Positions 5,947 to 53,821 of a DNA stretch of 64,000 bases are shown here, piece after piece. The stretch's first letter is position 1. The number at the start of each line of letters is the position of its first letter. The stretch lies in the sequence record OP557969.1; one strand, given 5' to 3'. Origin of the DNA: Escherichia phage ph0011. Under the pieces are notes generated by a model. It was not told where the DNA came from and searched no databases. It worked only from the letters and a program-made list of their open reading frames with translations. The translations under genes were made by a program, and so were the position numbers.

Positions 5947-5958
5947 GCAGGTACAAAG

Positions 5959-6258: not shown

Positions 6259-6265
6259 AACTAAA

Positions 6266-7530: not shown

Positions 7531-7531
7531 T

Positions 7532-8934: not shown

Positions 8935-8963
8935 TATAATCTATAGCCTAAGCACAAGGAGAA

Positions 8964-12597: not shown

Positions 12598-12614
12598 GAC
12601 ATATCTTGAATCGG

Positions 12615-12623
12615 TGATATAAT
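12615..12623 (+). promoter_or_regulatory. extended -10 promoter element TGATATAAT
   Basis: exact 9-mer in intergenic gap upstream of 12656 gene. Confidence 0.4.
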
Positions 12624-12655
12624 TTCATTACAACACTGACAATGGAGTAGATGTT

Positions 12656-13550: not shown

Positions 13551-13552
13551 CA

Positions 13553-15105: not shown

Positions 15106-15366
15106 ATGCATGACGTAATTAAAAAATACTTAAATGATAGATATGTCCTGACAAAATCTATTAATTCTATACTAAAAGACCATGCTAATCAAATACATGA
15201 GATTCTATCCGAGAAACTTATTGGTTGTTCAGTTGAATTTGACTACAAAAAGAATATCGGAGTTATTCGACGTGTAGTTGATGTTTATGAACAAAATGTA
15301 TATGTTGAAATTGTATATGATGGTAAATTATTACAACTAAGTACTGAAGATTTGACATTTTTATAA
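15106..15366 (+). CDS. hypothetical small protein
   Basis: ORF track. Confidence 0.5.
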   Translation: MHDVIKKYLNDRYVLTKSINSILKDHANQIHEILSEKLIGCSVEFDYKKNIGVIRRVVDVYEQNVYVEIVYDGKLLQLSTEDLTFL

Positions 15367-15376
15367 GGAAATAGAA

Positions 15377-15604
15377 ATGAAAGTAATTCAAGTTATGGTA
15401 GAAAAATACCAAACTGAAGATGGTCGCATTTTTGATTCAGCAAAACAAGCTGAACATCATGAACGTATTATTTCTGGTACACGTAAAGTGTGTCCTACAT
15501 GTAATGGAACACAACAAGTACCGTCAGAGGATTACCGCAGCTTTTATGCTTGTCCACAGTGTGACGGTAAAGGTTACGTAGAAAAACAAGAGGTATGGAA
15601 ATGA
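15377..15604 (+). CDS. small zinc-ribbon protein
   Basis: CPTCNG ... CPQCDG. Confidence 0.5.
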   Translation: MKVIQVMVEKYQTEDGRIFDSAKQAEHHERIISGTRKVCPTCNGTQQVPSEDYRSFYACPQCDGKGYVEKQEVWK

Positions 15605-16014
15605 AATTATATTGCTTAACTAATATGTATTGTCAAGGTGTCCAAGCTGGTATTCAAGCATTTCATGCTGGAGTTAAACTAATCAAAGAATATGAAGGTT
15701 CTTCGTTCAGTACTATGATTGATGAATGGTACAATGAGCATGAAACTATTGTAGTACTAAATGCGGGTGGACATGATAAATTAAATTCTTATTATAAAGA
15801 CCTTAACAAACAGGGAACAGTTCCGTTTGCCAAATTCAATGAAGCTGGATTGAATGATGCTATTACATGTATAGCAGTACTGTGTACATCTGAAATGGTT
15901 GAAGATATGTCTATTATGCGTATGAATCTTCCTGCTGGTGATCAGTTAATGCAGGTGAAATATGGATCATTATTTGACACATTAAAAGCAATTAGTACTA
16001 TGAGGACTATTTGA
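15595..16014 (+). CDS. hypothetical protein
   Basis: ORF track. Confidence 0.5.
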   Translation: MEMKLYCLTNMYCQGVQAGIQAFHAGVKLIKEYEGSSFSTMIDEWYNEHETIVVLNAGGHDKLNSYYKDLNKQGTVPFAKFNEAGLNDAITCIAVLCTSEMVEDMSIMRMNLPAGDQLMQVKYGSLFDTLKAISTMRTI

Positions 16015-17213
16015 TGGATTTTCCAGAGAAGTTATTTGTTGCACGTTCCTATATAAACCACAACCAAGTTAATGGTTATATTATCGATGCAACAAAATCA
16101 CACACAAAAGCATTCGAAACAAAGAAAGAAAGAGCTGAGTACTGGGCCAACAAGAACAAACTCCCATCGTTGTATATTGATAATGTACCAACTACAGGTT
16201 TTTGTGTAGTTGATAAATTGACAATTCATGCACGTGAAACATATTTCACTATCCGACATCCTGAAGGATTTGAATTTATGATTAGTTCCAAAAACATGAA
16301 TGATTTGATTATTAATAATGATATAATTAAAGGTGTTTTTGTTGACCCAATGTTTTTCAATAATAACTTAGAGTTGATCAATGGTAAAACAAAAGCATTT
16401 GCTAAGTTGGTTGATAAAGAAAATAAAAAAGAAAAACAAAAAGAAATTGTAGCAGGACTCAAAGTTGGTGATGGCTTCACTTATAACAAAGAAGATTACT
16501 ATTACTGTGGTAAAGTACATGCAATTTGTATAAAGAAAACTAAAGAATTTGCATACCCAGATAAAAGTTCAGTATATCATTTAGTGTTTAATAGTTCTCG
16601 TGGAACTTATGCTTTGAATCAACGTTTGGATAATTACAAACTGGAACCTCGTGCTCTTTTGAATAAGAAGACTACAACAGATGAAGAAATTAAACTTGCT
16701 AATGAATTTTGGCAAAGCTATAGAACAAACAGACATAACCCATTAGGTGAATCTAACATTCCAGTACTGGTACACAATAAATCATTTAAAGCAAAAGACC
16801 TTAAAATTAAATACGAAGAAATAAATGTTGATGATCTTATGAACAATGGACGTTTCAACGAAAACGTACCATTCATGACTAAAGATAATGAACAATCTTA
16901 TCGCGTATTTTTTGGTGTAAGTAATAATACAACACGTAGTTATTACGGGCGTAGTGGAGATTACACTATCCATTACAATGATAAATTTGAACGATTTAGT
17001 GCATATCCAGTTCAAATAGATGATAATGGAATTATGGTAATGGATGTTGATATTAACACACACTCTTCATTCAGTACATGGAATGGTCATCGTTCTCCAT
17101 TCTTTCCACCAAATGAACGCAAAACATCAAGTACTCGTTACTATCAAGATAAGCCGTGTCACGTACAACTAGCAATCAGCAATCCACTTTACATTGGAAA
17201 GTATTATCTATAA
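16011..17213 (+). CDS. hypothetical 400-aa protein
   Basis: long ORF, coupled start; no motif recognised. Confidence 0.6.
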   Translation: MMDFPEKLFVARSYINHNQVNGYIIDATKSHTKAFETKKERAEYWANKNKLPSLYIDNVPTTGFCVVDKLTIHARETYFTIRHPEGFEFMISSKNMNDLIINNDIIKGVFVDPMFFNNNLELINGKTKAFAKLVDKENKKEKQKEIVAGLKVGDGFTYNKEDYYYCGKVHAICIKKTKEFAYPDKSSVYHLVFNSSRGTYALNQRLDNYKLEPRALLNKKTTTDEEIKLANEFWQSYRTNRHNPLGESNIPVLVHNKSFKAKDLKIKYEEINVDDLMNNGRFNENVPFMTKDNEQSYRVFFGVSNNTTRSYYGRSGDYTIHYNDKFERFSAYPVQIDDNGIMVMDVDINTHSSFSTWNGHRSPFFPPNERKTSSTRYYQDKPCHVQLAISNPLYIGKYYL

Positions 17214-17224
17214 AGGAATATACA

Positions 17225-18643
17225 ATGAGCATTTTAGCAATTATTGAAAGCATTAAAAATACTAGTAGTACACTAGGCAAAAAAGCTATCCTTGAACAAA
17301 ATAAAGATAACTTAACTTTACAAAAAGTACTGAAATATACTCTCGACCCTTCAATTGTAAGTGGCTATAAGAAACTCCCTGCCGCTGATGACGTAGATCA
17401 ACATATGACGTTAGATGAAGCAATTGATAAGCTAGAATGCATTTACAAGCGTAGCTTGACAGGAAATGCGGGGCGTGATTTCATTGCTTCAGTACTGGGT
17501 TCAGTATCAGAAGATGATCAGGAAGTTCTCCGTAAAATGCTCACTAAGAACCTTGATTGTGGTATCCAAGAAAAGAACTGCAATGATGTGTTTGGTAAAG
17601 GATTCATCAAAGACGAACCATATATGCGTTGTTCTTTGATTGACAAAAAGACTGCAAAGAACATTAACTTCAAAGACTATGGCTATGCAGTCTCTGAGGT
17701 GAAAATGGATGGTCAGTACTTGAACCACGTTGTCATTAATGGTTCATTAACTTCTACATCCCGTAATGGTAAACTCTACGACTTCCTGGGTTGTCGTGAT
17801 GGTGAGATGGCAGGTCTTGCTCACATCATCCAAAGTAAAGATGAACGTTTTAGTAGTGGTGTAGTCTTTATGGGTGAAGGTGTAGTACTGGATACTGATG
17901 GAGAAACCATTCTCCCGCGTACTACAGGTAATGGTATTATTCAGAAAGCTGGAAAAGATTCAATCACTCAAAGTGAAGCAATGCGTACTGTATTCGTTCT
18001 ATGGGATGTTGTTCCATATGATGCATTCAGTGAAGGTGTATGGAATGTAAAACGTAAAGAACGCCGCGAGATCTTAGTTGGTGCAATCAATGAACTCGGT
18101 AGTGAATTTGTTCGTATGGTTGGGTTCCGTAAAGTTAACAACATCAAAGAAGCATTTGAGTACAACAGTGAACTGATGAACAAAGGTGAAGAAGGTTCAG
18201 TACTGAAATGTGAAGATGGTATCTGGAAATCTCATACTTCTCCTAAGCAGTTGAAAATGAAACTTAAGATGCAATTGGATTTGCGTATTGTTGGTTTCAA
18301 TGAAGGTGAAGGTAAGCGTAAAGGTAGCCTTGGTTCTTTACAACTGGAAAGTGCATGTGGTACACTAAAAGTAAATGTAGGTACAGGTATCCGTGAAAAA
18401 GATGCCGAATGGACGTTTAAAACCATTTGGGAAAGAATGCAAGAACTCATTGGTAAAGTAGTAACCGTGGAGTGCAATGATATAGTACAAGATAAGCGTA
18501 CTGGCGAACCATCACTATTTTTACCTGTGTTTATTGAATTTAGATTTGACAAAAACACTTGCGACGATTATACTCGTATCTTAGAAATTCGTGATAGTGC
18601 AGTTGAAGTGTTTTCAAACAGTATTATTGAAGTTTTAGGTTAA
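17225..18643 (+). CDS. ATP-dependent DNA ligase (T4 gp30-like)
   Basis: N-terminus MSILAIIESIKNTSSTLGKKAILEQNKDN parallels T4 ligase; KMDG adenylation lysine motif; start set at ATG 17225 after AAGGAA (ORF track begins 17156). Confidence 0.85.
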   Translation: MSILAIIESIKNTSSTLGKKAILEQNKDNLTLQKVLKYTLDPSIVSGYKKLPAADDVDQHMTLDEAIDKLECIYKRSLTGNAGRDFIASVLGSVSEDDQEVLRKMLTKNLDCGIQEKNCNDVFGKGFIKDEPYMRCSLIDKKTAKNINFKDYGYAVSEVKMDGQYLNHVVINGSLTSTSRNGKLYDFLGCRDGEMAGLAHIIQSKDERFSSGVVFMGEGVVLDTDGETILPRTTGNGIIQKAGKDSITQSEAMRTVFVLWDVVPYDAFSEGVWNVKRKERREILVGAINELGSEFVRMVGFRKVNNIKEAFEYNSELMNKGEEGSVLKCEDGIWKSHTSPKQLKMKLKMQLDLRIVGFNEGEGKRKGSLGSLQLESACGTLKVNVGTGIREKDAEWTFKTIWERMQELIGKVVTVECNDIVQDKRTGEPSLFLPVFIEFRFDKNTCDDYTRILEIRDSAVEVFSNSIIEVLG

Positions 18644-18662
18644 CCATTTATTGGAGGTAATT

Positions 18663-19454
18663 ATGAAATTTGTCGTAACATCTGATGTACACGGTAGTAC
18701 TGATTACCTCCATAGTGGGGATTACAGCGATACAGTACTGATTATTGCGGGAGACTTCGATGAAGTTAAACGAAGTCGTTATCGTACTGGTATTGAATCA
18801 CTGTGTAAGCAGTTCAAGAATGTAGTTCTGGTTCCAGGAAACCATGAGTATTATGGTTCAAACATTCACAAAACGCATCGAGTACTGTCCGATATGCAAG
18901 ATGAGATTCCAAATTTCATCTTTTTGCAAAACAAATTTGTATGGCTGGATGGTGTACTGCTCGTTGGTAGCACACTATGGACTGACTTTGATAAAGGCAA
19001 TGCACTGGTTAAGTTTGATGCTCAACAAAAGATGAATGATTATAAACACATTCGTCATGGAACAACATCAGAACCGTGGAAACGTAAACTCAAACCTGAT
19101 GATGTTGAGTTCATGCATTATCAGGATAAACAATTTATCAAAAATTCAGTTGATACAGTTCGTCTAATGAATGATAATGATATCAAGGTTGTGGTGGTAA
19201 CACATCATGCACCAAGTTATCAGAGTGTATCTCCGAGATACAAGAATGACTCACTGAATGGATGTTATTGTTCTGATATGGACCAGTACATCGAAGATTT
19301 GGGTGCTGATGTTTGGATTCATGGTCACGTTCATAGTAGCTTTGACTACCACATTGGTAAGACACGTATCATTTGTAATCCACGAGGCTATGAATCGTAC
19401 AGTGGTGCTTGTGAGAATTTTGATTACAATCCAAAATTTGTAGTTGAAATCTAA
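18663..19454 (+). CDS. calcineurin-like metallophosphoesterase
   Basis: SDVHG, AGDFDE, GNHEYY, HGHVHS motifs; ATG 18663 follows GGAGG. Confidence 0.7.
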   Translation: MKFVVTSDVHGSTDYLHSGDYSDTVLIIAGDFDEVKRSRYRTGIESLCKQFKNVVLVPGNHEYYGSNIHKTHRVLSDMQDEIPNFIFLQNKFVWLDGVLLVGSTLWTDFDKGNALVKFDAQQKMNDYKHIRHGTTSEPWKRKLKPDDVEFMHYQDKQFIKNSVDTVRLMNDNDIKVVVVTHHAPSYQSVSPRYKNDSLNGCYCSDMDQYIEDLGADVWIHGHVHSSFDYHIGKTRIICNPRGYESYSGACENFDYNPKFVVEI

Positions 19455-23356: not shown

Positions 23357-26029
23357 TTAAGCACTGATTGTTACAGTTGCAGTATCTTTTTTATTACCAT
23401 CCACTGTAGTCACTGTAATGATTACAGAACCTTCTTCTAGAGCAGTTACTAATCCATCATCACTAATAGATACTTTAGTAGGTTTATCTGCACTATAAGT
23501 TACTGATTTGTTAGTTGCTTTAGCTGGTAGAACTTCTGGAACTAGTTGAACTGTTTTAGTTCCTGATAGTGAAAGTTCAGTAGTTTTAGGTGTTAAACTA
23601 ACACTGGATACTGGAACTGGAATATTAACGATTACTGATGTTTGACCAGTAACATCACTACCATCAGCGGCAGTAGCGATAATATTTGCAGTACCATTAG
23701 TTAGTGCAGTTACGATACCAGTATTAGCATCTACTTTAGCAATTTCTGGAGCACTGGATGACCAAATTACATTTTTATTGGTTGCATCACTTGGGGTAAT
23801 TGCAGCAGCCATTTGTTTAGTTGCATTCAATGTAGTCAAAGTTTGATCTTTAGGAGTTACATCAATTGCAGTTACTGGCACTGGAATATTAACAGTAATA
23901 ACACCTTGACCTGTTTTACCACTTCCATCAGCAGCAGTTGCGATAATGTTTGCAGAACCGTTAGTTAACGCAGTTACAACACCAGTACTAGCATCTACTT
24001 TCGCTACAGCAGGTTTACTGGAAGACCATGTTACAGATTTATTTGTTGCGTTAGTTGGAAGAACTTCAGCAGCCATTGCTTGAGTTGCGTTAACAGCAGT
24101 CAATGTTTTAGTTGCTGGAGTAACATTAATAGATGCGACTGGAACTGGAATTGCTACAGTTACCGCACATTTTGCAGTTTTTGCTCCATCAGCAGTTGTT
24201 ACTGTGATATCAGCAGTGCCATTTGCTACAGCAGTGATTAAACCAGTTGGACTAACAGTTGCCACTCCATCAGCAGAAGTACTATAAGTTACTGCTTTGT
24301 TGGTAGCATTAGGTGGTAGTACAGTTGGTGTTAGTTGTTGAGTATCACCGACTGAAGTTAATTTAGCACTTGTTGGAGATACTGATACACTTGCAACAGG
24401 AACTGGAATGTTAACAGTTACCACGCAAACTTTAGAAAATCCACCATCAGATGTGGTTGCTGTAATATTTGCAGTACCGTTTGCAACAGCAGTGATTAAA
24501 CCAGTTGGACTTACCGTTGCGACACCCTCAGCAGAAGTAGTGTATGAAATATCTTTACGACGAGCGTTATCTGGAATAACAGATGCAGTTAGTTGTTGAG
24601 TAGCACCTACAGAAGTTAGGGTTGCTGTCAACGGAGTCATATTAATTCCAGTTACTGGGATCGTTACATCAATCACTGATTCAGCAGTTTTAGCACCATC
24701 ATCAGTGGTAACAGTAATAGTTGTAGTACCGTTATCAACCGAAGTTACTAGACCAGTATTACTAACTTTTGCTACGTCTGGATATGAAGAAACATATGAA
24801 ACTGCTTTATTGGATGCAGTTGCAGGAGCAACGGTTGTTTCTAATTGTTTAGTATCACCTAATGTTGAGAATGTATAAGTACTAGGAGTCATTGTGACAC
24901 CAGATACTGGTGTTTTCACTGTGATTGTAGTAGTGTCCGTTTTAGCACCATCTTCGGTTGTAGCTGTAATCACCACTGTGCCGTTAGCCACACCAGTTAC
25001 TAGACCAGAAGTAGGGTTAACAGTTGCTATATCAGGTGTTGCTGAAGACCACGTGACGTTTTTATTAGTTGCATCATCAGGAGATATTGTAGCAGTTAAT
25101 TGTTGAGTACTGCCAACGTTAATTGATGCAGTTTTAGGAGAAACAACAACACCACTAACTGGAGTTGTTACAGTAACAGTACATTTTGAAACAAATGAAC
25201 CATCAACTGTAGTTGCAATTACATCAGTACTGCCATCTGCAATACCAGTTACCATACCAGTTGGACTTACAGTTGCGAAGCGTGGTATACTGGATGACCA
25301 AATAACACTTTTATCACTTGCATCATCGGGTGATACGGTAGCTGTTAGTTGATGAGTTTTACCAACACCAAGAGATAGAGTTGAAGGAGAAACAACAACA
25401 CCACTAACTGGAGTTGTTACAGTAAATGCACAAACATCGGTGAAACCACCATCATGAGTAGTAACTGTTACATTTGCATTACCATTAGCACGGGCAATTG
25501 CTAAACCAGTTTGAGCATCAACTTCAACTATTGTTGGAGCAGAGGAACTATAACTTACTGTTGGATCATTTGCATAATCTGGATTAATTGTAGCTGATAG
25601 TTGTTGTGTGCTACCAACTTTAAGTGCTACTACTTTGGGTGAAATAATAACACCATTAACTGGTGTAGTATAATCACGTTTAACCACACGACCATTGTTC
25701 AATTTAATAATACGACCCATATAAAGAGTAGCATATCCCTTACTAATCCCATCATCTACATAAATCATAAATGAATTGTCTTGAACCATATTAATTGCGT
25801 CTACTGGCTTAACAGTATTTGGAATGTCGATACCACGGGTATCATACCAACACATGGAAACTTTGTAATATATATCACCATTATCATTGATGAGATCATA
25901 CACGTTACTGGAACGTTGACGGTTAATATATAAAGTTTCGGTTAATACCTTACCATCGATTTTAGCGACAGAAACTTTAATACCACCAATACCAAATGGC
26001 AATTTACCTTCACTAGATATTGCTTTCAT
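23357..26029 (-). CDS. Ig-like (Big_2-type) repeat protein, probable virion surface/decoration or adhesin protein
   Basis: 890 aa; about ten tandem ~85-aa repeats of pattern VSGVVVSP..VG.TQQLTATV.P..ATNK.V.WSS..P..A.V...GLVT..A.G...ITATT.DG; late-promoter motif upstream. Confidence 0.8.
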   Translation of the reverse strand: MKAISSEGKLPFGIGGIKVSVAKIDGKVLTETLYINRQRSSNVYDLINDNGDIYYKVSMCWYDTRGIDIPNTVKPVDAINMVQDNSFMIYVDDGISKGYATLYMGRIIKLNNGRVVKRDYTTPVNGVIISPKVVALKVGSTQQLSATINPDYANDPTVSYSSSAPTIVEVDAQTGLAIARANGNANVTVTTHDGGFTDVCAFTVTTPVSGVVVSPSTLSLGVGKTHQLTATVSPDDASDKSVIWSSSIPRFATVSPTGMVTGIADGSTDVIATTVDGSFVSKCTVTVTTPVSGVVVSPKTASINVGSTQQLTATISPDDATNKNVTWSSATPDIATVNPTSGLVTGVANGTVVITATTEDGAKTDTTTITVKTPVSGVTMTPSTYTFSTLGDTKQLETTVAPATASNKAVSYVSSYPDVAKVSNTGLVTSVDNGTTTITVTTDDGAKTAESVIDVTIPVTGINMTPLTATLTSVGATQQLTASVIPDNARRKDISYTTSAEGVATVSPTGLITAVANGTANITATTSDGGFSKVCVVTVNIPVPVASVSVSPTSAKLTSVGDTQQLTPTVLPPNATNKAVTYSTSADGVATVSPTGLITAVANGTADITVTTADGAKTAKCAVTVAIPVPVASINVTPATKTLTAVNATQAMAAEVLPTNATNKSVTWSSSKPAVAKVDASTGVVTALTNGSANIIATAADGSGKTGQGVITVNIPVPVTAIDVTPKDQTLTTLNATKQMAAAITPSDATNKNVIWSSSAPEIAKVDANTGIVTALTNGTANIIATAADGSDVTGQTSVIVNIPVPVSSVSLTPKTTELSLSGTKTVQLVPEVLPAKATNKSVTYSADKPTKVSISDDGLVTALEEGSVIITVTTVDGNKKDTATVTISA
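23560..25700 (-). repeat. tandem coding repeats (~255-bp period) within Ig-like gene, including identical 40-nt segments
   Basis: ggagaaacaacaacaccactaactggagttgttacagtaa occurs at ~25139 and ~25390. Confidence 0.6.
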
Positions 26030-26066: not shown

Positions 26067-26074
26067 TATTTATA
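26067..26074 (-). promoter_or_regulatory. T4-type late promoter motif TATAAATA (minus strand)
   Basis: tatttata on + strand, ~37 nt upstream of minus-strand ATG at 26029. Confidence 0.45.
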
Positions 26075-38923: not shown

Positions 38924-39286
38924 ATGTCAATTCAAGGTAAACAAGTAATGTCAGGTGAGCACATCGGAACCATCATGCTGGTGGATAATGATATTGCACG
39001 TATTATTGTATCTAAAACATTTTCAGAAAATGATGAAGTACTTTTGAGTACTTTTGACGGCGAAGAACTTCGTGACGTTCAGGTTAAACATGAACCTGGT
39101 ATTGAAGGTGGTCAGCATTTGAATGTAAATGTTCTATCTAAAGAACAACTCATTGATGCACAAAATAACCCTGAAAAGTATCCACAGCTTACTATTCGTG
39201 TTAGTGGTTATGCAGTACGTTTCAATTCACTAACAAAAGAACAACAAGATGATGTAATTTCTCGTACATTCACAAAAGAACTATGA
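38924..39286 (+). CDS. autonomous glycyl-radical cofactor (GrcA/YfiD-like; T4 Y06I-like)
   Basis: [10 protein letters not shown]...[34 protein letters not shown] nearly matches the GrcA / pyruvate formate-lyase C-terminal glycyl-radical domain. Confidence 0.85.
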
Positions 39287-40069: not shown

Positions 40070-40098
40070 TATTACAGAAATGTGGAAATATATGAAGA

Positions 40099-40121
40099 AG
40101 CACCCTTTGGGTGCTTTTTTT
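40099..40121 (+). terminator. rho-independent terminator
   Basis: stem agcaccc/gggtgct followed by TTTTTTT. Confidence 0.7.
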
Positions 40122-40128
40122 ATAATAT

Positions 40129-40136
40129 TATAAATA
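40129..40136 (+). promoter_or_regulatory. T4-type late promoter motif TATAAATA
   Basis: exact octamer 31 nt upstream of ATG 40168. Confidence 0.5.
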
Positions 40137-40167
40137 CACTATGAATATCTAGATAGAAGGGATATAT

Positions 40168-42867
40168 ATGGCAAATAAAATATATGGTGGTATTGATGTT
40201 ACACACAATGTCACAGTAAAAGGTAAGAGAAGTGCTCAGAGCATCAATGATGACGTATTTGATGAAAACGGCAATCTCACAATAGATGCATATACACAAA
40301 ATGATATGTTAGAAATGGTTGGTATGTTACCAATTTCTCGTTATGGTACACAAAACTATCTACCTGCTGGGGTTAATGGTACAACAGTTGGTTCTTCAGA
40401 AAATATTAATTCCAGAAATACAAAATTATTTTTGGAAGATGATAACACTTTAGTAATGTTACGTCCAGGTACTAATGGTAGTACTCAAGGTGTTTATTAT
40501 AGTTATATGACCCAAGCAGTAGGTACAACAAATACAAGTCGTATGGTTAATACTACTCGTGCATATAAACCCAATTACTTTGGTGCAGCATACGCAGTTT
40601 ATTTGTACCCAAGTAGTAATGATATTACTTGCGGTTTAGTGAGAATGGAGAATACCGATGGTACATATGTTGATAAAGTTTTTGTGTCAGATAATAATGG
40701 TACATTGAATGATGCAATGCACACTGGTATTATTCTATCAGATCATACAGCAGTACAACCTTTTGGTGCAATACAATTTGTTATTCGTGCAGAAGATGGT
40801 GCATTATATTTTTTTAGTTTAGACACACCAAATAATACTCTTAAAATATCCGTTACTAAAGTTACTTTTAGTCCAAGTAATAACCCAGGTGGTGGTACTT
40901 ATAGTATTACTAGAATTACTGGTTGGACTACAAGAACTTTTTATAATGCAATGATAGCTGATGAGAACATTGTTCCTACGATGAAAATAAATTCAACAAA
41001 TACCAATGATACTCCATACGTTTTAATTCCAAGCGGTATTATTGGGTTTGGTGTTTATATGACAGATCCAGATTTATATGTTGCACAGAGATCAGGTACA
41101 TCTACATTCAAATTTAGATTATGTGGTGATATGTGGATGAGTAATGGTAGATATGACATACGACCACAACATAGTTTTAGTATGACTTTTGATGTTGCAA
41201 CGAAGCAATGTGCACTCGATAATATGACAACGACTACACCAGTTGCTGTTTATGACAATGGTTCTAGCATGAATGCAACTGGACCTTGCTTGACAACTGA
41301 CCCATTTTATCTTCATGCAGGTGCACGTAATATTTTCAGTAATTATTGCTATATTCCATCAACAGGGGATGCGTTTTGTTCATTTTCACCAAACCTAGCA
41401 GAACCATTGAATTTATCATATGCAAAATACCCACCAAAATCTTTATTTGATTTGATGGATGTTAGAAGTGTGTCAGCAACTAATTTTATTAATGGTGTAG
41501 TAACACCAAGATTTGGTTCAGCAGTTGGGTCATACCAAGTAGGTGTAGAGTTATTACCAAATAACAGTACTAAACAATATTCAAGACGTTCTGGTGATGG
41601 TCGTTTTTTTCCATCCTATGCTGTTCATAAATCTACACCAAACTTTACATTCAAGTCGTTGAATTATGGTACAGTACCTGGTTATGAACCAACACCTGAC
41701 AGAAATTTCATAACCACACCAGAATCACGCATTTTTATAAGTTCAATATCTGGTTCAAACGTCACTACTAATGGTGGTGTTTTGGTTGCTGACATTAGAA
41801 CATCAACACCAATTAGTTTTGATTATAAAGGTAATGTACTGAATAATGGTACAATCAGTATGTCTCAAGATATAATGAATGCTATTAGGAATTCAGAATT
41901 TGCTAAAGTTGCTGGTTCTTGGGATATATCCCCAGCATCAGTAAAAACATTATCAGTTTTCGTTCCACAACAAACTGATATTCCTGTTTTCGCGGTTCTT
42001 GCTGCAACAACTAATTCCAGAGGACTATATATTCGTATGATTGAATTAGGTGTTAATACAAGAACAGGAGATATTACAACGTGGGCATTTAAACGTTTAG
42101 TACATGAAAGTGTTCAAGCTCTGGATTACAAAACTGATGCCGGATATTATCTTGATAGTGGAAGTATTGGTATTACTATATATGATGCTGGTTCTTTTTA
42201 CTTCATTGGTGGTGGTATTCCAGGTTTCTTTCCTACAGTTGGTAATACAGCTTCACCTTTTTTTCGTGCTACTGTAGATAAAGCAAGTAAGCAATTTAAT
42301 AATTTCCATATAGCTGGTAATCGACCTATCTATGCATTAGACGGTCAACCATTTGCTTTACCTGGTATTGGATTTGGTATTCTTCAAAGTATAGATCTTC
42401 AAAACAAAACTATTTTTAGAAAGTATGGAACTACATTAGAAGATTATAATGCATGGACTGATAAAGGAGATCCATTCATTTGCGTTGTTTCACAAGACGT
42501 TGCTCAAGGTTTTATTATATACTTCACTGAAGAGACACCAGTACTGATATCAGGTAAGCACTATACATTACCAATATCAAATATTGATTTAACAAAAGTG
42601 AAAGCAAATCCTGCGAATACTACATTTTATGTGTATATTAAATTAGTGCAGGGTATTGCAAAGTATCATATATCAACAACTGAATTAGCTGAAACTCAGT
42701 CAATATTCTGGATTGGTACAGTGAAAACTAATGATTTACAAATAACCGAAATTAATATCGTTAAACGTTCTCGTTTAGATCTGTTTGGTGCATCCTATGA
42801 CGCTGCCGGAAGTTCATTCCCAGTTAGTTCTGGTTTCCCTTCAGGTTCTGGTAATGTGAATTGGTAA
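40168..42867 (+). CDS. large paralogue A (899 aa), probable late/virion protein of unknown function
   Basis: shares ~110-aa N-terminal and ~120-aa C-terminal regions with 43479-46220; late promoter upstream. Confidence 0.75.
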   Translation: MANKIYGGIDVTHNVTVKGKRSAQSINDDVFDENGNLTIDAYTQNDMLEMVGMLPISRYGTQNYLPAGVNGTTVGSSENINSRNTKLFLEDDNTLVMLRPGTNGSTQGVYYSYMTQAVGTTNTSRMVNTTRAYKPNYFGAAYAVYLYPSSNDITCGLVRMENTDGTYVDKVFVSDNNGTLNDAMHTGIILSDHTAVQPFGAIQFVIRAEDGALYFFSLDTPNNTLKISVTKVTFSPSNNPGGGTYSITRITGWTTRTFYNAMIADENIVPTMKINSTNTNDTPYVLIPSGIIGFGVYMTDPDLYVAQRSGTSTFKFRLCGDMWMSNGRYDIRPQHSFSMTFDVATKQCALDNMTTTTPVAVYDNGSSMNATGPCLTTDPFYLHAGARNIFSNYCYIPSTGDAFCSFSPNLAEPLNLSYAKYPPKSLFDLMDVRSVSATNFINGVVTPRFGSAVGSYQVGVELLPNNSTKQYSRRSGDGRFFPSYAVHKSTPNFTFKSLNYGTVPGYEPTPDRNFITTPESRIFISSISGSNVTTNGGVLVADIRTSTPISFDYKGNVLNNGTISMSQDIMNAIRNSEFAKVAGSWDISPASVKTLSVFVPQQTDIPVFAVLAATTNSRGLYIRMIELGVNTRTGDITTWAFKRLVHESVQALDYKTDAGYYLDSGSIGITIYDAGSFYFIGGGIPGFFPTVGNTASPFFRATVDKASKQFNNFHIAGNRPIYALDGQPFALPGIGFGILQSIDLQNKTIFRKYGTTLEDYNAWTDKGDPFICVVSQDVAQGFIIYFTEETPVLISGKHYTLPISNIDLTKVKANPANTTFYVYIKLVQGIAKYHISTTELAETQSIFWIGTVKTNDLQITEINIVKRSRLDLFGASYDAAGSSFPVSSGFPSGSGNVNW

Positions 42868-42877
42868 TGGAGAGAAT

Positions 42878-43468
42878 ATGTCTTATAAATTTAGAGCAGA
42901 TGTGGAAGCTTATGCTTCCGTTAAATCACAAGGAAAAAATACTGGGACCACGATAACTGTTCGTTCTGGTAATGTGTATCAAGCTGATGCAAATGGGAAT
43001 ATTGATATACCAGTCATGAGTACAGATGATGTGAATTACATTACCAGTTCGTTTCCGTTATCACAATTTGGACCACTTTACAGTGATGAACCATTAGGTA
43101 TTACTTCTGCGGGTTTCAATTTAACTTTCAGCAAAGAATTACCGTTATTCATGGCGGGAGCGGCGTATACCCTCCCAGCAAAAACAATAACAGATCCTGG
43201 TGTTTCTGGTACTAATATTGAAACACATTATGTATATGTTATATTAGATGTTGGGGTAGCTGACTACCTCATTTCTAAAACTCAACGACCTGAAAGTAGT
43301 GTTAATATGTACATCGGAAAACTAACAGTTTTCCCAGATGGCATTACAGGGGTCAGTATAAATAAAGTGTCAAGATTTGACAACTTCAGAGTAAGTTCTA
43401 CAAAAATTGGTTCAGCTATCCCTATCAGTTCTGGTTCACCAGATGTGAATGGTATGATAGAATGGTAA
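42878..43468 (+). CDS. short paralogue (196 aa) carrying the shared C-terminal domain
   Basis: C-terminal VSRFDNFRV..SSGSPDVNGMIEW aligns with C-termini of both large paralogues. Confidence 0.65.
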   Translation: MSYKFRADVEAYASVKSQGKNTGTTITVRSGNVYQADANGNIDIPVMSTDDVNYITSSFPLSQFGPLYSDEPLGITSAGFNLTFSKELPLFMAGAAYTLPAKTITDPGVSGTNIETHYVYVILDVGVADYLISKTQRPESSVNMYIGKLTVFPDGITGVSINKVSRFDNFRVSSTKIGSAIPISSGSPDVNGMIEW

Positions 43469-43478
43469 AGGAATATAT

Positions 43479-46220
43479 ATGGCTTCTAGACGAATTATAG
43501 GAAACGCAGATATACTAGGGAATTTAAAAATTAATGGAAAGTATGCATTACGTTCCCTTAATGGTGTTCCTGCTGACTCTGCTGGTAAAATCACTTATCA
43601 ATATTATGACAAAGCGGAAGTAAATCAGATATTTGATATGCTTCCAGTTTCAAGGGTAGGTGATCAAGATTACCTACCAATGAGTATTAACGGTACTTTT
43701 GAAGGTGCTTCTTCCTTTTCATTTGCAAAAATAATGCAACCTTGTATCATTGAAAATGATGGAACTGGTGTAATTTTACGTGCAGGTACAAATGGAAGTT
43801 CTTATGGTTACTATTATACTTATATTAAAAATATAAGAGATATAGAAACACTAACTCAAGATAATATAATTACAACCAATACGATGTATAGACCGTCTGT
43901 GCTACCAAGTACTGATTACATTTATGAATTTTATGGGTCAAATGCATATGAATTACTATTTTGGGAATCAACTGATAGAACATCATATTACCTTACATTA
44001 ACAAATGAAACATTGAATGAATCAGCACACAAGCATTGCAGAATTCCAAAAACAGCAATAACAAATAAACCAATATATGCACACATCGTAAATGATTCAG
44101 TTTATATATGGTGTATGGATTCAAGTGTATTTAGTAGTGTTCGCGGGTGTGCATTTATTATATACACAGTACCTTTAACTGCATTTAATACTGGTTCAGT
44201 TTCTACCGTAACACAGATTGGTGGTTATTCAGGAAGAACTATAAGAGATGCAACATATACTGCATCTAATAATATTCGCGTTTATGATAGCTATTCTATT
44301 TTAGGTTCAGGTGGTGATGCACTAATAGTATATGATAATGGTATTTCCAGAATAGATTATTGGGAAAATAACGTATTTAATACCCAAGCAGTTCTTAGCC
44401 CAGATGGTACAAAAATAAGAGTTGCGATCTATCCAGGATTCCGTGTTTTCACTGAAACAAAAACATCTAGTGTATATGCACTTGGTATTAGCTTTACATA
44501 TGATATCAGTACTAAAACAATGACACTTGACGGTTCTGAACGTGGTCCAATCAGAGTATCAGCTAATACATCAACTGGTAGTATAACAGTAAGAAACCCG
44601 TTTTCAATCAATATGGAAAACTTTACAGGGTTTTATGACGGTGCACTTGGCAACTATGGTTCAATCTGTCAAACTTCTGATGGTTTTGTTTTCACCACCA
44701 AAGCAAGATGGACATCCACACCAACATATGCAGTACAAACATACAAAGTTTCTGGTACACCTTATGATAGTTGGGTCGCTAAAACACGTACTGCTAGTAA
44801 TTTAAAACGTGTCGAAGTAATGCCAGTTTATGGTTCCCCTGTCGGTGAAAACTTAATAGGTGTTCGTTTCGTAGATAAACGTAAGATACTTGTTGCATGT
44901 TCTGGCACTGCTGATGGAATTTCTTATGGTTATGATAGTACAGTTTTTACTGAAATAGGTGAGAATCCGACTTATGTTTATAAAAACTTGGAACAAAATA
45001 CCACAATGAATGGTTTTGCACCATCAAGTAATAGACACTATTTAAGTACTGATTACAAATATGCAGGTATGATAACATTGGTTGATGCAAATGGAAATGT
45101 CAGCACTTATGGTTCTTCGTTAATAGAAGACATCGATAAACCAGCGTATGGAAAATTCGACCCAGTTACAATGGACTTCGACAGTAATAGATATGAAATT
45201 TCAGGAACAACATTATCAAGTATAGGTGATAATGCAATCGCTAAAGCTGGATTGTCTGGAATAACTGATCATAAAACTGTTTTTTATTATGTACCTGATA
45301 CTACATATTCTAAATCGATTGCAGTCACTTCTGCATTAAACGGTACTACCAATGTGTGTTATATTATTTTTTCCGAAATATCATGTAGTGCAGTTGGTAC
45401 AAGTGGTACTATAATTTTACGTGATATTAATGTTGATACAGCAAGATATACATCAATGACGAATACATTCCAAATTTCACCAAATGAAATGGTCAAACGT
45501 TGGGCTGGTATGACGGTTTCTAAGTTTAGTGGTTTTAACTACTTAGGTGTGAACATTTTATATGGCATTGATACCCCAGGTTGGACTCGTTATCCTAACA
45601 TGATTGCTAAAGTGAAAAATGGTATTATTTCAAGTCAACGATATATGGAAACAACTTATATTTCAAACGCACAATTTGATATAGGTACAATTCCAGGGAT
45701 TGGGTTTGGATATTACCAAATGAACAAAAACGATTATCAAACTAAATCAGTTTTTGCTGTATGTGGTACTACTGAAGCAGATATGGATAAACTAATATCT
45801 GGTAATGAAACGATATCACAGTACTTAGTTATTGCTTCACAGGACGTGGCACAAGGGTTTCATGTATACTTTTCACAAGAAGTACCAGTTTTCTTGGGTG
45901 GAAAGTTTGCAAAGATACCACCGACTATGATAGACTTATCTACTATAAGTACTACACCAGAGAATTCAACATTCTACATATATGCGGTGATGGATAGAGA
46001 TACATCCACAGCATCGTATCAGATATCACTACATCAATTATCAGAAACTATGACATCAACATACATTGGTAAGATAGTAACTAATAATAATGGTATTGCA
46101 TCAATCGAGTCTGAAAAAGTTTCCAGATTCTTGCTATACCGTCCAAGTACCTACAATCGTGGTTCTGCGATCCCAGCAAGTTCTGGTGTTCCGTCAGGAA
46201 CAGGTACACGTTGGAATTAA
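43479..46220 (+). CDS. large paralogue B (913 aa), probable late/virion protein
   Basis: N-terminal MLPVSRVGDQDYLP and C-terminal QDVAQGFHVYFSQEVPV shared with paralogue A. Confidence 0.75.
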   Translation: MASRRIIGNADILGNLKINGKYALRSLNGVPADSAGKITYQYYDKAEVNQIFDMLPVSRVGDQDYLPMSINGTFEGASSFSFAKIMQPCIIENDGTGVILRAGTNGSSYGYYYTYIKNIRDIETLTQDNIITTNTMYRPSVLPSTDYIYEFYGSNAYELLFWESTDRTSYYLTLTNETLNESAHKHCRIPKTAITNKPIYAHIVNDSVYIWCMDSSVFSSVRGCAFIIYTVPLTAFNTGSVSTVTQIGGYSGRTIRDATYTASNNIRVYDSYSILGSGGDALIVYDNGISRIDYWENNVFNTQAVLSPDGTKIRVAIYPGFRVFTETKTSSVYALGISFTYDISTKTMTLDGSERGPIRVSANTSTGSITVRNPFSINMENFTGFYDGALGNYGSICQTSDGFVFTTKARWTSTPTYAVQTYKVSGTPYDSWVAKTRTASNLKRVEVMPVYGSPVGENLIGVRFVDKRKILVACSGTADGISYGYDSTVFTEIGENPTYVYKNLEQNTTMNGFAPSSNRHYLSTDYKYAGMITLVDANGNVSTYGSSLIEDIDKPAYGKFDPVTMDFDSNRYEISGTTLSSIGDNAIAKAGLSGITDHKTVFYYVPDTTYSKSIAVTSALNGTTNVCYIIFSEISCSAVGTSGTIILRDINVDTARYTSMTNTFQISPNEMVKRWAGMTVSKFSGFNYLGVNILYGIDTPGWTRYPNMIAKVKNGIISSQRYMETTYISNAQFDIGTIPGIGFGYYQMNKNDYQTKSVFAVCGTTEADMDKLISGNETISQYLVIASQDVAQGFHVYFSQEVPVFLGGKFAKIPPTMIDLSTISTTPENSTFYIYAVMDRDTSTASYQISLHQLSETMTSTYIGKIVTNNNGIASIESEKVSRFLLYRPSTYNRGSAIPASSGVPSGTGTRWN

Positions 46221-46226
46221 TTTTAA

Positions 46227-46254
46227 AGCTCGTCTATTGACGGGCTTTTCTTTT
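46227..46254 (+). terminator. rho-independent terminator
   Basis: stem agctcgtc/gacgggct (one G-U) followed by TTTTCTTTT. Confidence 0.55.
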
Positions 46255-46288
46255 GTGTGTATAATACAAAGAAATATAGGAGGAAATT

Positions 46289-46855
46289 ATGGTCAAATCA
46301 TTACTACCACCACCAAAACGACATAAAATTAAAGAAATGAAAGAACAACGTACATTAAAGATGTACAACAATTTAGTTAATTTACTTTGCAAAAGTCCAT
46401 CACTCAAAGAAATATTCACCACAGATGATGATCGTAATGCACTTATTGAGATGAAGTATATGCTCAGTAAAATGTCCTTTTACAAATTTGTCAAAGAATA
46501 CTCAACTGAACCATTCAGTCCTCGTTGGCGAGTCAAACCAAGAGAGTATTTTTTCGGTGGTTCATATACTGATATCATTCAAGATACGGTGATAGGCGTA
46601 GAGTTCGAGATTGATTATGAGCCTAATGGTGTGGAAAACTGGCAGATTGACAAACATTTACCAAGTGAAGATGAAATTTATGTTTATGCAAGAAAACAGT
46701 CAACTTTCAGTTCAAAAATTGCTCTTAATAATTTAGATTCATTTATTATTTTCTATACATTTGTCGGTGTAGATAAAATGGCAACTAAACTCAATGAATT
46801 ATCATTGCAACAAAAACAGATTAATGCATACAAAGACATTACAGATTTATACTAA
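46289..46855 (+). CDS. member 1 of tandem ~170-190-aa paralogue trio
   Basis: shared pattern LKEIFTTDDDRNALIEMKYMLSK with next two genes. Confidence 0.6.
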   Translation: MVKSLLPPPKRHKIKEMKEQRTLKMYNNLVNLLCKSPSLKEIFTTDDDRNALIEMKYMLSKMSFYKFVKEYSTEPFSPRWRVKPREYFFGGSYTDIIQDTVIGVEFEIDYEPNGVENWQIDKHLPSEDEIYVYARKQSTFSSKIALNNLDSFIIFYTFVGVDKMATKLNELSLQQKQINAYKDITDLY

Positions 46856-46861
46856 TGAGGA

Positions 46862-47383
46862 TTGGATATGTTTTTTGGACAGTTTAAAAAACCTGACAGT
46901 ACTTTAATTTGGCATGAAATCATCTTTAAAATTATATCTAAAAGCTACTCACTAAAAGATATTATCAAAACAGATCATGATCGACGTGTTCTGTTAGAAG
47001 CAAAATATAAATTGAGCAAACACCCGTTACTTTCTTTAATCATTGATTACGTTAATGATTATGAATCCAGTCGTTGGAAGTGGGAAGACGGAGGTTTATT
47101 TCGTGGAAAAACATTCTACGGTGCAGAACGATATGTATTCAGTGATACAGCAAATGGTGTTAAGTTTGCTATTAGAAACTTTAACTCCAAAGAAAATGAT
47201 TATCTTGAAAGTGGAGTTAAGGTGTATATAGATAATAATAACAATGTACTTACATATGACGAATCACTAATTATGTTACAAATAATGCGTGGAGTTGAAA
47301 GTGTAAGACACAATCTTACTAAGTTGAAAATCCAGCAAAATGATATACATAATAGACAGAAAATTAAGGGTTTATATAAATGA
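46862..47383 (+). CDS. member 2 of tandem paralogue trio
   Basis: LKDIIKTDHDRRVLLEAKYKLSK. Confidence 0.6.
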   Translation: MDMFFGQFKKPDSTLIWHEIIFKIISKSYSLKDIIKTDHDRRVLLEAKYKLSKHPLLSLIIDYVNDYESSRWKWEDGGLFRGKTFYGAERYVFSDTANGVKFAIRNFNSKENDYLESGVKVYIDNNNNVLTYDESLIMLQIMRGVESVRHNLTKLKIQQNDIHNRQKIKGLYK

Positions 47384-47889
47384 TTTCATTTTTCAAAAAG
47401 AAAGAAAAAGTTGATGAAACTGGATTAGAATCGTTTCTATGGACTCTTATCATTAAAAAAAGTCCATTAATGAAAGAATATGCTATCAATGATGCTAATA
47501 GAAAAACTATCATTGAATACAAATACGAATTATCAAAATGTGATCCAATAGTTTATCACTTTGCGAAGTACTGTTCTAAAAATTTATCGGATATCACGAT
47601 TGAACACGAGTCAGTACCAATGAGTTTTCCTTATGGTGATTGGGTAAATACTTTTGATATTTTCGATGGGTCTAATGGATTCCGTTTCTTTTACTCGTCA
47701 AATAAAGCAAATGTTCGTATTAAAACTGAGATAGGTTGGGCACAGCATAGCACAAATAAAGAAGATTATAATTTACTAGCTGACGTATACCGAAGTGTGA
47801 AGAATTCAAAGGATATTGATGAAAGAATTAAAAAGCAAAATCGTATTTCTTTATCACTTGAAACATACAAGTCAAAGTATGGTGGTTAA
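47380..47889 (+). CDS. member 3 of tandem paralogue trio
   Basis: MKEYAINDANRKTIIEYKYELSK. Confidence 0.6.
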   Translation: MISFFKKKEKVDETGLESFLWTLIIKKSPLMKEYAINDANRKTIIEYKYELSKCDPIVYHFAKYCSKNLSDITIEHESVPMSFPYGDWVNTFDIFDGSNGFRFFYSSNKANVRIKTEIGWAQHSTNKEDYNLLADVYRSVKNSKDIDERIKKQNRISLSLETYKSKYGG

Positions 47890-48293: not shown

Positions 48294-49522
48294 ATAACCA
48301 ATATGTTGAACAAACAATAGTGAAACACTTGGCTGGGTCACAAGCCTACGGAACCAGTACACCTGAAAGTGATACTGATTATCGTGGTATTTTTCTTGCT
48401 AATAAAGAATTTATTCTTACGCCATTCTATAAGGTTAAAGAAGTAGCTGATAAAAATGAAGAAGATACCAAATTCTATGAGTTAAATCAGTATTTAAAAT
48501 TATACACTGATGCTAACCCTAATATTCTGGAATCACTATGGGTTGAACCAGAACACATTGTAGAAAGTACTGAGATTTATGACTATCTTCGTTCATTTAA
48601 CCAAAAACTTCTTAGTTCCAAGATTGCATTTTCATACACTGGATATGCATATAATCAAATTAAACGTATGACAAATCACCACGGTTGGATGGATAAAGAG
48701 CGTATTGCTGAAAAACGTTTAAATGAGATTTTAGAAGAACACCCAGTCGATGAGGTTCTTGTGTGGATGTATGATTCATTCCCACAATATCTTGTTGACC
48801 GTTTAGATACATCCAAATTACATCCATTTAATGCTAAAAAGATTGATTTTGAAAAATACATGCGTGATACGTCATTGCAGTTAGTTTCGAAAAATCCATT
48901 AAAGCAATATCATTTTGTAAGATTAGTGCATAACTACACTACTGATAAAATTCTAGATCGTGATTTCAATTTATTGAATTTTAACAATGGGTATGAACTA
49001 ATTCATTACGGAGAAAACATTTTTGCGATTATTAAAAATCCAAATGAAAGTACAATCAACGGTGATGGTTCATTGCGACATTTTTCAAAAGAGCGTAGTA
49101 CTGAAGAGTTGAAAACCAAACCAGAACTAATTGTCAAATTTAACGAAAAAGAATATCAGGAAAATAGTGAGAATAGAAAAAGTTATCATAAATGGAAAGA
49201 AAATCGTAATGCCAAACGTGCTATTTTAGAATCACTACACGGCTATGATTGCAAAAGTGCAATGCATACCATTAGACTATTGAATAGTGCAGAAGATGCA
49301 TTACAAAGTGGGATTATTCAAGTTAAACGCCCAGATGCACAGATGTTGATGGATATTCGTAATGGTAAATGGAAGTATGAAGAAGTTTTAGAATATTTCG
49401 ATGATAAAGTAAAATATATCCGTGATGTTCTATATAAGAAATCAGAACTTCCAAAAAAACCAGATATTAAATTAGCATCGAAAATTATCATTGATATCCG
49501 AGAGATGCAATGGTATAAGTAA
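48290..49522 (+). CDS. nucleotidyltransferase-fold protein (Pol-beta-like NTase superfamily)
   Basis: N-terminal GSQAYGTSTPESDTDYRGIF matches the G[GS]x(9-13)Dh[DE] NTase signature. Confidence 0.6.
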   Translation: MNNQYVEQTIVKHLAGSQAYGTSTPESDTDYRGIFLANKEFILTPFYKVKEVADKNEEDTKFYELNQYLKLYTDANPNILESLWVEPEHIVESTEIYDYLRSFNQKLLSSKIAFSYTGYAYNQIKRMTNHHGWMDKERIAEKRLNEILEEHPVDEVLVWMYDSFPQYLVDRLDTSKLHPFNAKKIDFEKYMRDTSLQLVSKNPLKQYHFVRLVHNYTTDKILDRDFNLLNFNNGYELIHYGENIFAIIKNPNESTINGDGSLRHFSKERSTEELKTKPELIVKFNEKEYQENSENRKSYHKWKENRNAKRAILESLHGYDCKSAMHTIRLLNSAEDALQSGIIQVKRPDAQMLMDIRNGKWKYEEVLEYFDDKVKYIRDVLYKKSELPKKPDIKLASKIIIDIREMQWYK

Positions 49523-49616
49523 TATATGGGTGTAATAGTTATAAAAAATTCCATTACACACCAAATCACTTCAGTGATTTATATCTTGACATTGAAAAAA
49601 ATAATTATGTATAGTT

Positions 49617-49647
49617 AGAGAACTTCATATGGAGTTCTCTTTTTTTA
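49617..49647 (+). terminator. rho-independent terminator
   Basis: 8-bp stem agagaact/agttctct followed by TTTTTTT. Confidence 0.65.
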
Positions 49648-49660
49648 TAAGGGTGATTAA

Positions 49661-50062
49661 ATGTTAAATGAACGTATTAAAAATGCACTATATGTATTGA
49701 ACCAAGAAGTTAATTCTATTAATAAAAGTACTGAGCGATATAAAGTATTACATGAAATTAGACAAGAATTGGAATCTATTAATAAGGGAAAATGGGTTCT
49801 TGAACGCGAACGAACTATTGTTGAAAAAGCAATTGCAAAATTCATCTCTGAACGTTATGGTAAAATTTCAGAGGAAGATGTACTAATGAACTTACATCTT
49901 TCACAAACGGAAGTGATGGAGAAATTTCATTTTGATTCATTAGACTGGTTGGAAATGATCATGGAATTGGAAGAAGAATTCAATGTAGAAGTAGATTTAT
50001 ATTATGAAAAACAAGAAACCAAACTATATGAACTAGCAGAACATATTAAACTAATGATGTAA
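49661..50062 (+). CDS. protein with acyl-carrier-protein-like C-terminal domain
   Basis: FDSLDWLEMIMELEEEFNVEV resembles ACP helix-II motif (DSLDTVELVMALEEEF) including the conserved Ser. Confidence 0.5.
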   Translation: MLNERIKNALYVLNQEVNSINKSTERYKVLHEIRQELESINKGKWVLERERTIVEKAIAKFISERYGKISEEDVLMNLHLSQTEVMEKFHFDSLDWLEMIMELEEEFNVEVDLYYEKQETKLYELAEHIKLMM

Positions 50063-53354: not shown

Positions 53355-53362
53355 TATAAATA
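53355..53362 (+). promoter_or_regulatory. T4-type late promoter motif TATAAATA
   Basis: exact octamer 18 nt upstream of ATG 53381. Confidence 0.45.
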
Positions 53363-53380: not shown

Positions 53381-53821
53381 ATGGAAAATATTGAAAATTT
53401 GAGACATGTTATGGATTTTATCATTGATACTGAAGAAGATAGTGCTTATGATGAAATCCTACTAACTTTTATTGAAAATAGTTTGTTTTTAAGTTCTGCT
53501 GCACATAACTGGCATTTACAAAGCCGATTCTATACTAAGCATCTTCAACTGGATGAACTATACAAAGAGTTACCTGAGTATGTTGATGCATTTGTAGAGG
53601 GTATTATGAACACACGCGGTGCATTACAGGTAGGAACTGGTAACAGTTATCGTTTTACCCCTATCGAAGATTGTGTACCAATTCTTGAAGAATATGCGAG
53701 TCAATGTAAAGCCATTCATGCTATGCTTGAGGAAGCTGAAGACTATGGCAGTACTAACACATTAGAAGATATTATTAGTTTTGTAGACGGTGTGCTTTAC
53801 AAACTTAAAGTTTTACAATAA
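53381..53821 (+). CDS. hypothetical protein, possible ferritin/Dps-like four-helix protein
   Basis: AAHNWHLQSRFYTKHLQLDELY loosely resembles the Dps HWN..G..F...HE..D signature; weak inference. Confidence 0.5.
   Translation: MENIENLRHVMDFIIDTEEDSAYDEILLTFIENSLFLSSAAHNWHLQSRFYTKHLQLDELYKELPEYVDAFVEGIMNTRGALQVGTGNSYRFTPIEDCVPILEEYASQCKAIHAMLEEAEDYGSTNTLEDIISFVDGVLYKLKVLQ

Follow-up and report, generated by a model that had tools for sequence, protein, structure and literature searches.

Three tandem paralogous genes of Escherichia phage ph0011, here called A, B and C, probably make up an operon that is transcribed late and encodes low-copy virion proteins, located at the periphery of the tail or baseplate and taking part in host-surface recognition. 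The genes lie in a 64-kb stretch (the window; record OP557969.1) of this Asteriusvirus-type jumbo coliphage, which has a 350-kb genome and E. coli as its host, and they are followed by three small paralogous genes. An earlier note, made from the sequence of the window, had singled out both groups, and its coordinates for all six genes agreed exactly with the open reading frame (ORF) listing.

Paralogy and architecture of the trio

Gene A (40168-42867, + strand) encodes a protein of 899 residues, in which an N-terminal segment (residues 1-66) is followed by a beta-propeller-type core and by a C-terminal shoulder-like domain plus tail (residues ~774-899), and gene C (43479-46220, + strand; 913 residues) has the same architecture. 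The product of gene B, the mini protein (42878-43468, + strand; 196 residues), is without the propeller core, so that its N-terminal segment (residues 1-66) is joined straight to the C-terminal shoulder-like domain and tail (residues ~77-196). The intergenic gaps between A, B and C are of 10 nucleotides (nt) each. Pairwise alignment showed a paralogy far above chance: A and C were homologous end to end (26% identity, E 3e-52), and B matched the C-termini (last ~120 residues) of A and C with 36-37% identity (E 1e-18 and 2e-18). The cores of A and C shared 14-28% identity per 50-residue block. Across the family, residues 51-100 had a mean pairwise identity of 57% and the final ~160 residues one of 52-74%; the core, at 29-45%, was the lowest stretch, yet it was homologous throughout. 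The earlier description of a trio with conserved termini and variable cores therefore stands as regards the paralogy and the better-conserved termini, but the cores are diverged homologues rather than swapped modules. The terminal motifs that had been quoted are present; the N-terminal segment carries LP[VI]S[RQ]xG and the C-terminal tail is the invariant GSAIPxSxGxP...W.

The 196-residue protein had been taken to carry the shared C-terminal domain only. This has to be corrected, because the shared N-terminal ~65 residues are also present in B: in the family alignment B was aligned with both ends of the large proteins and a gap spanned the intervening ~710 residues, and B matched the full-length middle paralogue of phage CBB, gp148, both at residues 1-~70 (E 1e-15) and at residues 798-916 (E 4e-24). 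Judged from these alignments, B is the middle paralogue after the loss of ~710 core residues by in-frame deletion, and it has been retained nevertheless.

The direct sequence relatives of the trio are the uncharacterised jumbo-phage families PHROG 3573, 26864 and 7449, whose profiles were matched over the full length: A matched PHROG 3573 (E 1.2e-196), C the PHROG 3573/26864 family (E 4e-210) and B PHROG 26864 (E 8.3e-47). These families carry no function, and their database records read 'hypothetical' or, occasionally, 'minor tail' or 'structural' protein. For none of the six proteins was anything meaningful obtained from Pfam, NCBIfam and PADLOC, and PHROG yielded only families without an assigned function. 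Furthermore, no match at E<=1 was obtained among all PDB chains with a single sequence, with the family profile or with the homologues from phages EL and Goslar. The earlier note could not match the large proteins to T4 gp34-38 or gp12, and the lack of any sequence match in Pfam, NCBIfam or PDB agrees with this.

With tblastn, full-length homologues were found in 78-79 phage records; the end domain occurs in up to about 160. The family was present in all Rak2-like jumbo phages examined, and in the loci inspected it came directly after nrdG. CBB and the GAP32-type phages have three full-length ~900-residue genes in tandem, and the big-mini-big layout was found in Asteriusvirus, in Salmonella phages such as Munch, in Klebsiella phage fENko-Kae01 and in Xanthomonas phage XaC1. 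Best matches across genera follow gene position: A pairs with CBB gp147, B with gp148 (the two share a FPLSQ[FY]G motif) and C with gp149, and the triplication is therefore old. A is also the positional orthologue of phAPEC6 gp323c. In the nucleus-forming chimalliviruses, too, large virion-type proteins that are encoded in tandem sets terminate in the C-terminal domain of the family, i.e., ORF114/115 of EL, gp18/19/20 of the Agricanvirus Special G, and gp26 together with the 169-residue mini gp28 of Goslar. The Special G set adjoins the baseplate gene gp21, and Goslar gp26-28, which have N-terminal segments in common, lie between the tail-fibre genes gp25 and gp29.

The AlphaFold2 model of the 913-residue protein (pLDDT, the per-residue confidence score, 78; pTM, the global one, 0.70) was all-beta, with about 50 short strands within residues 89-780, and the mini protein B was modelled confidently at residues ~71-160 (pLDDT 83-91). 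The predicted core resembles six-bladed propeller lectins and sialidases, and Foldseek returned tandem-propeller proteins, the receptor-binding proteins (RBPs) of the staphylococcal phages phi11 and 80alpha and the tail fibre of cyanophage A-1(L), at sequence identities of 5-8%. In A, B and C a domain that takes up the final ~125 residues is predicted to fold into a compact beta-sandwich of two antiparallel sheets, as in the RBP shoulder. This domain lies at the C-terminus, after the putative binding core, and not at the N-terminus as in the p2 RBP and TssK. In the full-length model 124 residues could be aligned to the p2 RBP, although the N-terminus of the model is unstructured. A split shoulder domain, in which the propeller would be inserted between an N-terminal helix and the C-terminal sandwich, is an unproven speculation.

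Signals of late transcription, homologues in virions, and cassette exchange

The trio is preceded by an intrinsic terminator (40094-40122, + strand; RNA fold of -16 kcal/mol, z -5.5, then a U-run), which closes the nrdD/nrdG unit and whose hairpin is found in the same place in phages A4, phAPEC6, PBECO4, 121Q and CBB. The T4-type late promoter motif TATAAATA follows at 40129-40136 (+ strand), 39 nt before the first ATG, that of gene A. The earlier note had read this motif as a sign of virion proteins, and it proved to be real: the 64-kb window contains only 4 copies where 12.8 would be expected, 3 of them are placed 26-39 nt upstream of a start codon, and (A/T)ATAAATA was found at -39 to -43 before the trio in A4, phAPEC6, PBECO4, 121Q, vB_Ec-M-J and CBB, though the surrounding sequence differs. 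The position of the motif is kept in seven phages of two genera, the other genus, Mimasvirus, being that of CBB. In Rak2-like phages, the CBB paper describes a gp55-like sigma factor and ATAAATA before structural genes (PMC5259590). The trio therefore has the marks of T4-type late genes, i.e., TATAAATA just upstream and a gp55-like sigma factor reported for the related phage CBB. A second intrinsic terminator (46225-46255, + strand; -14.4 kcal/mol, z -5.9) ends the operon. These signals support the view that the trio would be a late transcription unit between two strong terminators.

The other copies of the motif in the window were also inspected. The internal copy at 43357 was conserved only in the same allele (A4), and it is probably coincidental. 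The copy at 26067-26074 (- strand) lies 38 nt upstream of the ATG of the only large minus-strand gene of the window (23357-26029), which encodes a protein of 890 residues with nine Big_2 Ig-like repeats (E 9e-136). This repeat protein was ruled out as a fourth paralogue, and it is likely to be a late virion surface or decoration protein unrelated to the trio. The copy at 53355-53362 (+ strand) lies 26 nt upstream of a gene (53381-53821) for a DUF5856 protein of 146 residues, which suggests that this is a further, isolated late gene.

The proposal that the large genes encode virion proteins is supported, through homologues, by mass spectrometry in phAPEC6 and Goslar. In phAPEC6 virions gp323c was found with 4 unique peptides (5.6% coverage). 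The phAPEC6 record (MK817115) has no coding sequence (CDS) for B or C though both ORFs are intact (5826-6410 and 6430-9156 of locus L003); the missing CDSs may explain why the virion proteome shows gp323c alone, since B and C were perhaps not in the search database. In Goslar, label-free quantitation gave equimolar values of 12.8, 13.8 and 14.3 copies per virion for gp026, gp027 and gp028 (ranges ~8.5-22), with 21 peptides and 31.8% coverage for gp026, and the flanking tail fibres gp025 and gp029 were present at ~75-87 copies. The label 'structural protein' of CBB gp148 and gp149 was discarded as evidence, because it is not backed by the mass-spectrometry table of the CBB paper itself.

Comparison with related phages revealed that the trio is mosaic with respect to its surroundings. 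The region 40100-46300 showed 91.6% DNA identity, to Escherichia phage A4 only, and from ~46060 onward more than 30 PBECO4/121Q-group phages were roughly 86-96% identical. At the protein level the trio was 88-94% identical to that of A4, and its identity to PBECO4, 121Q, phAPEC6 and vB_Ec-M-J was 52% for A, 44% for B and 50% for C (44-53% over the trio). With the same four phages, protein identity was 82-98% for nrdD, for the DUF4326 gene and for the genes that run from the end of the trio up to a nucleotidyltransferase gene, and 81-87% for nrdG. For nrdD, DUF4326, the nucleotidyltransferase and the small paralogues by themselves the range was 86-98%. The small paralogues were 86-96% identical to those of the PBECO4 group and only 33-39% to those of A4. 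As the trio has diverged amid near-identical flanks, it travels as a single cassette, whose breakpoints are near 40100 and 46230, independently of the small genes. Within A, residues 151-200 (40618-40767) form a hypervariable patch with 52% identity to A4, vs 84-96% elsewhere; this block could reflect local recombination, or it could be a loop of the first propeller region that is diversifying. A swap of core and C-domain modules in the vB_Ec-M-J group, considered because of a megablast piece from ~42345, was rejected, since the per-block identities reflected a somewhat higher conservation and no swap.

Proposed role of the trio and competing explanations

The reading that we favour assigns a task to each part of the proteins. 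The conserved N-terminal ~65 residues, in which the LP[VI]S[RQ]xG motif is found along with a helix and short strands, would be an assembly segment; the ~700-residue all-beta core would consist of propeller blades, most like those of six-bladed lectins and glycosidases; and the ~100-residue beta-sandwich of the RBP 'shoulder' or TssK N-terminal type would be followed by the invariant tail. By analogy with p2-type RBP shoulders, or with TssK on the loop of its partner, oligomerisation of the chains and their docking on the baseplate would fall to the conserved N and C modules, and the diverged propellers would point outwards to bind, or less likely cleave, a surface glycan. A, B and C, as ancient paralogues of conserved position, would most likely be co-assembled in equimolar amounts and possibly as an A:B:C heterotrimer, in which B, its propeller lost in this lineage, would survive as a bare assembly subunit. 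We propose that the cassette is exchanged as one unit because specificity lies in the set. The diversified receptor-binding-like role suggested in the earlier note is consistent with the predicted propeller core, with the RBP-shoulder-like end domain and with the cassette exchange.

Several observations weigh against this role for the trio. The AlphaFold2 models were built on shallow alignments (18-19 sequences), and the first ~77 and last ~35 residues of the C model are of low confidence. The reversed position of the shoulder-like domain makes docking by analogy uncertain, and neither Asp-box (S-x-D-x-G-x-T-W) nor FRIP motifs turned up when A, C and four homologues were scanned by regex. Within Asteriusvirus there are only a few deep allele classes, without the fine-grained hypervariability that is typical of many RBPs. 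As for the virion, CBB_147-149 are not listed in the CBB mass-spectrometry table, the C-domain is not detectable in Goslar gp27, and the ~13 copies (+/-50%) in Goslar fit 12 heterotrimers or 6 homotrimers per chain equally. The trio family is not modelled in the cryo-electron microscopy papers on Goslar and phiKZ.

As an alternative, the trio might consist of TssK-like structural connectors of the baseplate periphery, without receptor choice, the allele classes then reflecting co-evolution with other baseplate proteins. The TssK-type shoulder fold, the low and fixed stoichiometry in Goslar, the persistence of a set of three genes in jumbo phages that are very distant from one another and the few allele classes in the genus all fit this explanation. 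We consider it rather unlikely, however, because the trio is swapped as a cassette amid near-identical flanks, which would be unusual for core baseplate parts, because the propeller core, which resembles lectins, glycosidases and the platforms of staphylococcal phage RBPs, is the least conserved part, and because one member can drop its whole core and still be maintained. The likeness of the core to glycosidases recalls tail-borne propeller glycosidases or depolymerases that degrade capsule, O-antigen or another polysaccharide, but an enzymatic trio is unlikely: the catalogue of missing Asp-box and FRIP motifs given above, the lack of a Pfam or NCBIfam glycosidase match and the very low identities to the structural matches all argue against it. 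Another possibility is that the trio proteins polymerise head-to-tail, through the N and C modules, into the 'hairy' whisker fibres that phAPEC6 and CBB bear on tail and capsid. The gene products responsible for these fibres are unassigned, and conserved termini with disordered ends could make such contacts, as proposed for the DUF7941 filaments of Goslar. This explanation is very unlikely, since the peptide count in phAPEC6 and the copy number in Goslar are too low for many ~120-nm fibres, the trio proteins went undetected in CBB, and the family is also found in GAP32, Goslar, EL and Agricanvirus, none of which has been described as hairy.

The favoured reading, that of a host-recognition complex, can be compared with known systems. 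The p2 RBP, the 1358 RBP, gp22 and TssK have in common a 'shoulder' domain, which forms trimers and grips a loop on its partner in the baseplate. The likeness of the trio to the lactococcal p2 and 1358 RBPs (shoulder-neck-head) and to the stand-alone SPP1 gp22 would lie in this predicted domain. In p2 and 1358, however, the shoulder is N-terminal, before a neck and a small head, whereas in the trio it follows the ~700-residue propeller core; in addition, the trio belongs to a Gram-negative jumbo myovirus and has no sequence similarity to the p2, 1358 or SPP1 gp22 proteins. TssK, of the baseplate in the T6SS (type VI secretion system), is a homotrimer with an N-terminal shoulder and no propeller, and it binds the membrane complex rather than a host receptor. 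Gp131-gp135 of phiKZ are likewise tandem jumbo-phage paralogues, with an attachment module in common and differences outside it; together they form 12 heteromeric fibres at the periphery of the baseplate, with a distal beta-propeller in gp131. In that set only the N-termini are shared, whereas in the trio both ends are. The about 12 copies in Goslar recall these 12 fibres and, likewise, the two TssK trimers per T6SS wedge. No PDB sequence match linked the trio to the N-terminal domains or propeller of gp131, the presence of the gp131 chain in the PDB set being assumed, and there was no Pseudomonas phage phiKZ record among the matches listed for trio homologues. The staphylococcal RBPs (phi11 Gp45 and that of 80alpha) and the endosialidases (phi92 and K1F type) differ from the trio in blade number and domain order; the trio has no catalytic or Asp-box motifs, its identities to them are below 10%, and neither sialidase/GH33 hallmarks nor a Pfam match were found.

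A broader proposal is put forward tentatively, and we hold it to be possible but doubtful. Rak2-like myoviruses and nucleus-forming chimalliviruses, which are unrelated lineages, may share an obligate three-chain adhesin that has not been recognised before, present at about 12 per virion, with common N-segments, C-terminal shoulders, a giant propeller insertion in one to three of the chains, and minis as core-less placeholders. Such a heterotrimeric relative of the p2 RBP and TssK, of inverted topology, would be the exchangeable host-range determinant of these phages. The propeller adhesin and the RBP shoulder domain are known kinds; new would be the inverted domain order, the fixed set of three paralogues with a core-less member, and the occurrence in two unrelated jumbo-phage lineages.

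Small downstream paralogues, neighbouring genes and implications

Directly downstream of the trio, on the same strand, lie the small paralogues 1 (46289-46855, + strand; 188 residues; PHROG 18641), 2 (46862-47383, + strand; 173 residues with a TTG start; PHROG 18641) and 3 (47380-47889, + strand; 169 residues), the last being a distant member (PHROG 7868 with cross-hits to 18641). Their mutual similarity, which had been noticed before, is real: 1 and 2 share 30% identity (E 6e-16), and 2 and 3, by their N-terminal 53 residues only, 36% (E 3e-5), with reciprocal PHROG cross-hits. Small paralogue 1 matched no Pfam or NCBIfam family and gave one weak PADLOC match (DUF2290, E 0.0012). An exhaustive hidden-Markov-model search of 1.8 billion proteins (50% clustering) yielded 31 representatives of the family, 28 of them single-domain proteins of ~140-200 residues, and no Pfam domain was found in the distant members scanned.

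A sigma-70-type promoter (46237-46265, + strand; TTGACG, a 17-nt spacer and TATAAT), which with 11/12 positions is the best match in 36-54 kb, precedes the small genes, and its -35 box (TTGACG) sits in the loop and descending stem of the terminator hairpin that ends the trio operon. The compact arrangement of terminator and promoter (46225-46265, + strand) recurs in A4, phAPEC6, PBECO4, 121Q and vB_Ec-M-J, and a similar design is found before CBB gp150. As a terminator is followed by a sigma-70-type promoter in a layout that is conserved across the genus, the small paralogues form a separate unit, probably early, and they are probably not part of the machine built by the trio. The earlier note had taken them for chaperone or accessory genes of the large fibre-like proteins. 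Their position would suit such a role, since tail-fibre chaperones are often encoded 3′ of the fibres, as would the synteny kept within the genus. Nevertheless, assembly chaperones or accessory factors are most improbable here: the terminator and the promoter split the small genes from the trio, no functional match, let alone one to a chaperone family, was found in Pfam, NCBIfam or PHROG, the small genes are PBECO4-like where the trio is A4-like, so that the two do not co-vary, and CBB- and GAP32-type phages keep the trio but have no small genes.

With only 33-39% identity to those of A4, the small paralogues form a second hot spot of diversity (46289-47889 vs 12175-13748 of locus L001), while the nearby nucleotidyltransferase is 87% identical. 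Between the nucleotidyltransferase gene and an acyl-carrier-protein gene, PBECO4, 121Q, phAPEC6 and A4 carry a tail-fibre pair (15106-18524 of locus L007 and 15485-18903 of locus L008), composed of a gene for ~175-210 residues and one for ~930 residues; the latter is phAPEC6 gp314c, which has been seen by mass spectrometry. At 49522-49661 the window, like vB_Ec-M-J, is without this pair, i.e., it has one fibre module fewer than its relatives. Upstream of the trio, which comes directly after them, lie nrdD, a mini-protein gene of the Gly_radical family, the DUF4326 gene and nrdG. The mini-protein gene (38924-39286, + strand), between nrdD and the DUF4326 gene, encodes a stand-alone glycyl-radical protein of 120 residues (Pfam Gly_radical, E 1e-17; RVSGY motif). 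It was found here and in A4 and is absent from PBECO4, 121Q, phAPEC6 and vB_Ec-M-J. We take it to be similar to the 'spare-part' proteins E. coli GrcA and T4 Y06I.

Therapy directed at pathogenic E. coli, Salmonella, Klebsiella and Erwinia is a purpose for which Asteriusvirus and Rak2-like jumbo phages are being isolated, and the host-range determinants of these phages are largely unassigned, with >80% of the genes being 'hypothetical'. The reading of the trio as a low-copy tail adhesin complex gives a testable role to a conserved three-gene cassette of roughly 80 sequenced jumbo phages, and it would account for the odd 196-residue gene as a core-less assembly subunit. It would also extend to the members of the family in chimalliviruses (Goslar gp26-28, EL ORF114/115 and Agricanvirus gp18-20), where much of the peripheral baseplate density is unmodelled. 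Finally, the natural boundaries of the cassette may be of use for re-targeting such phages.

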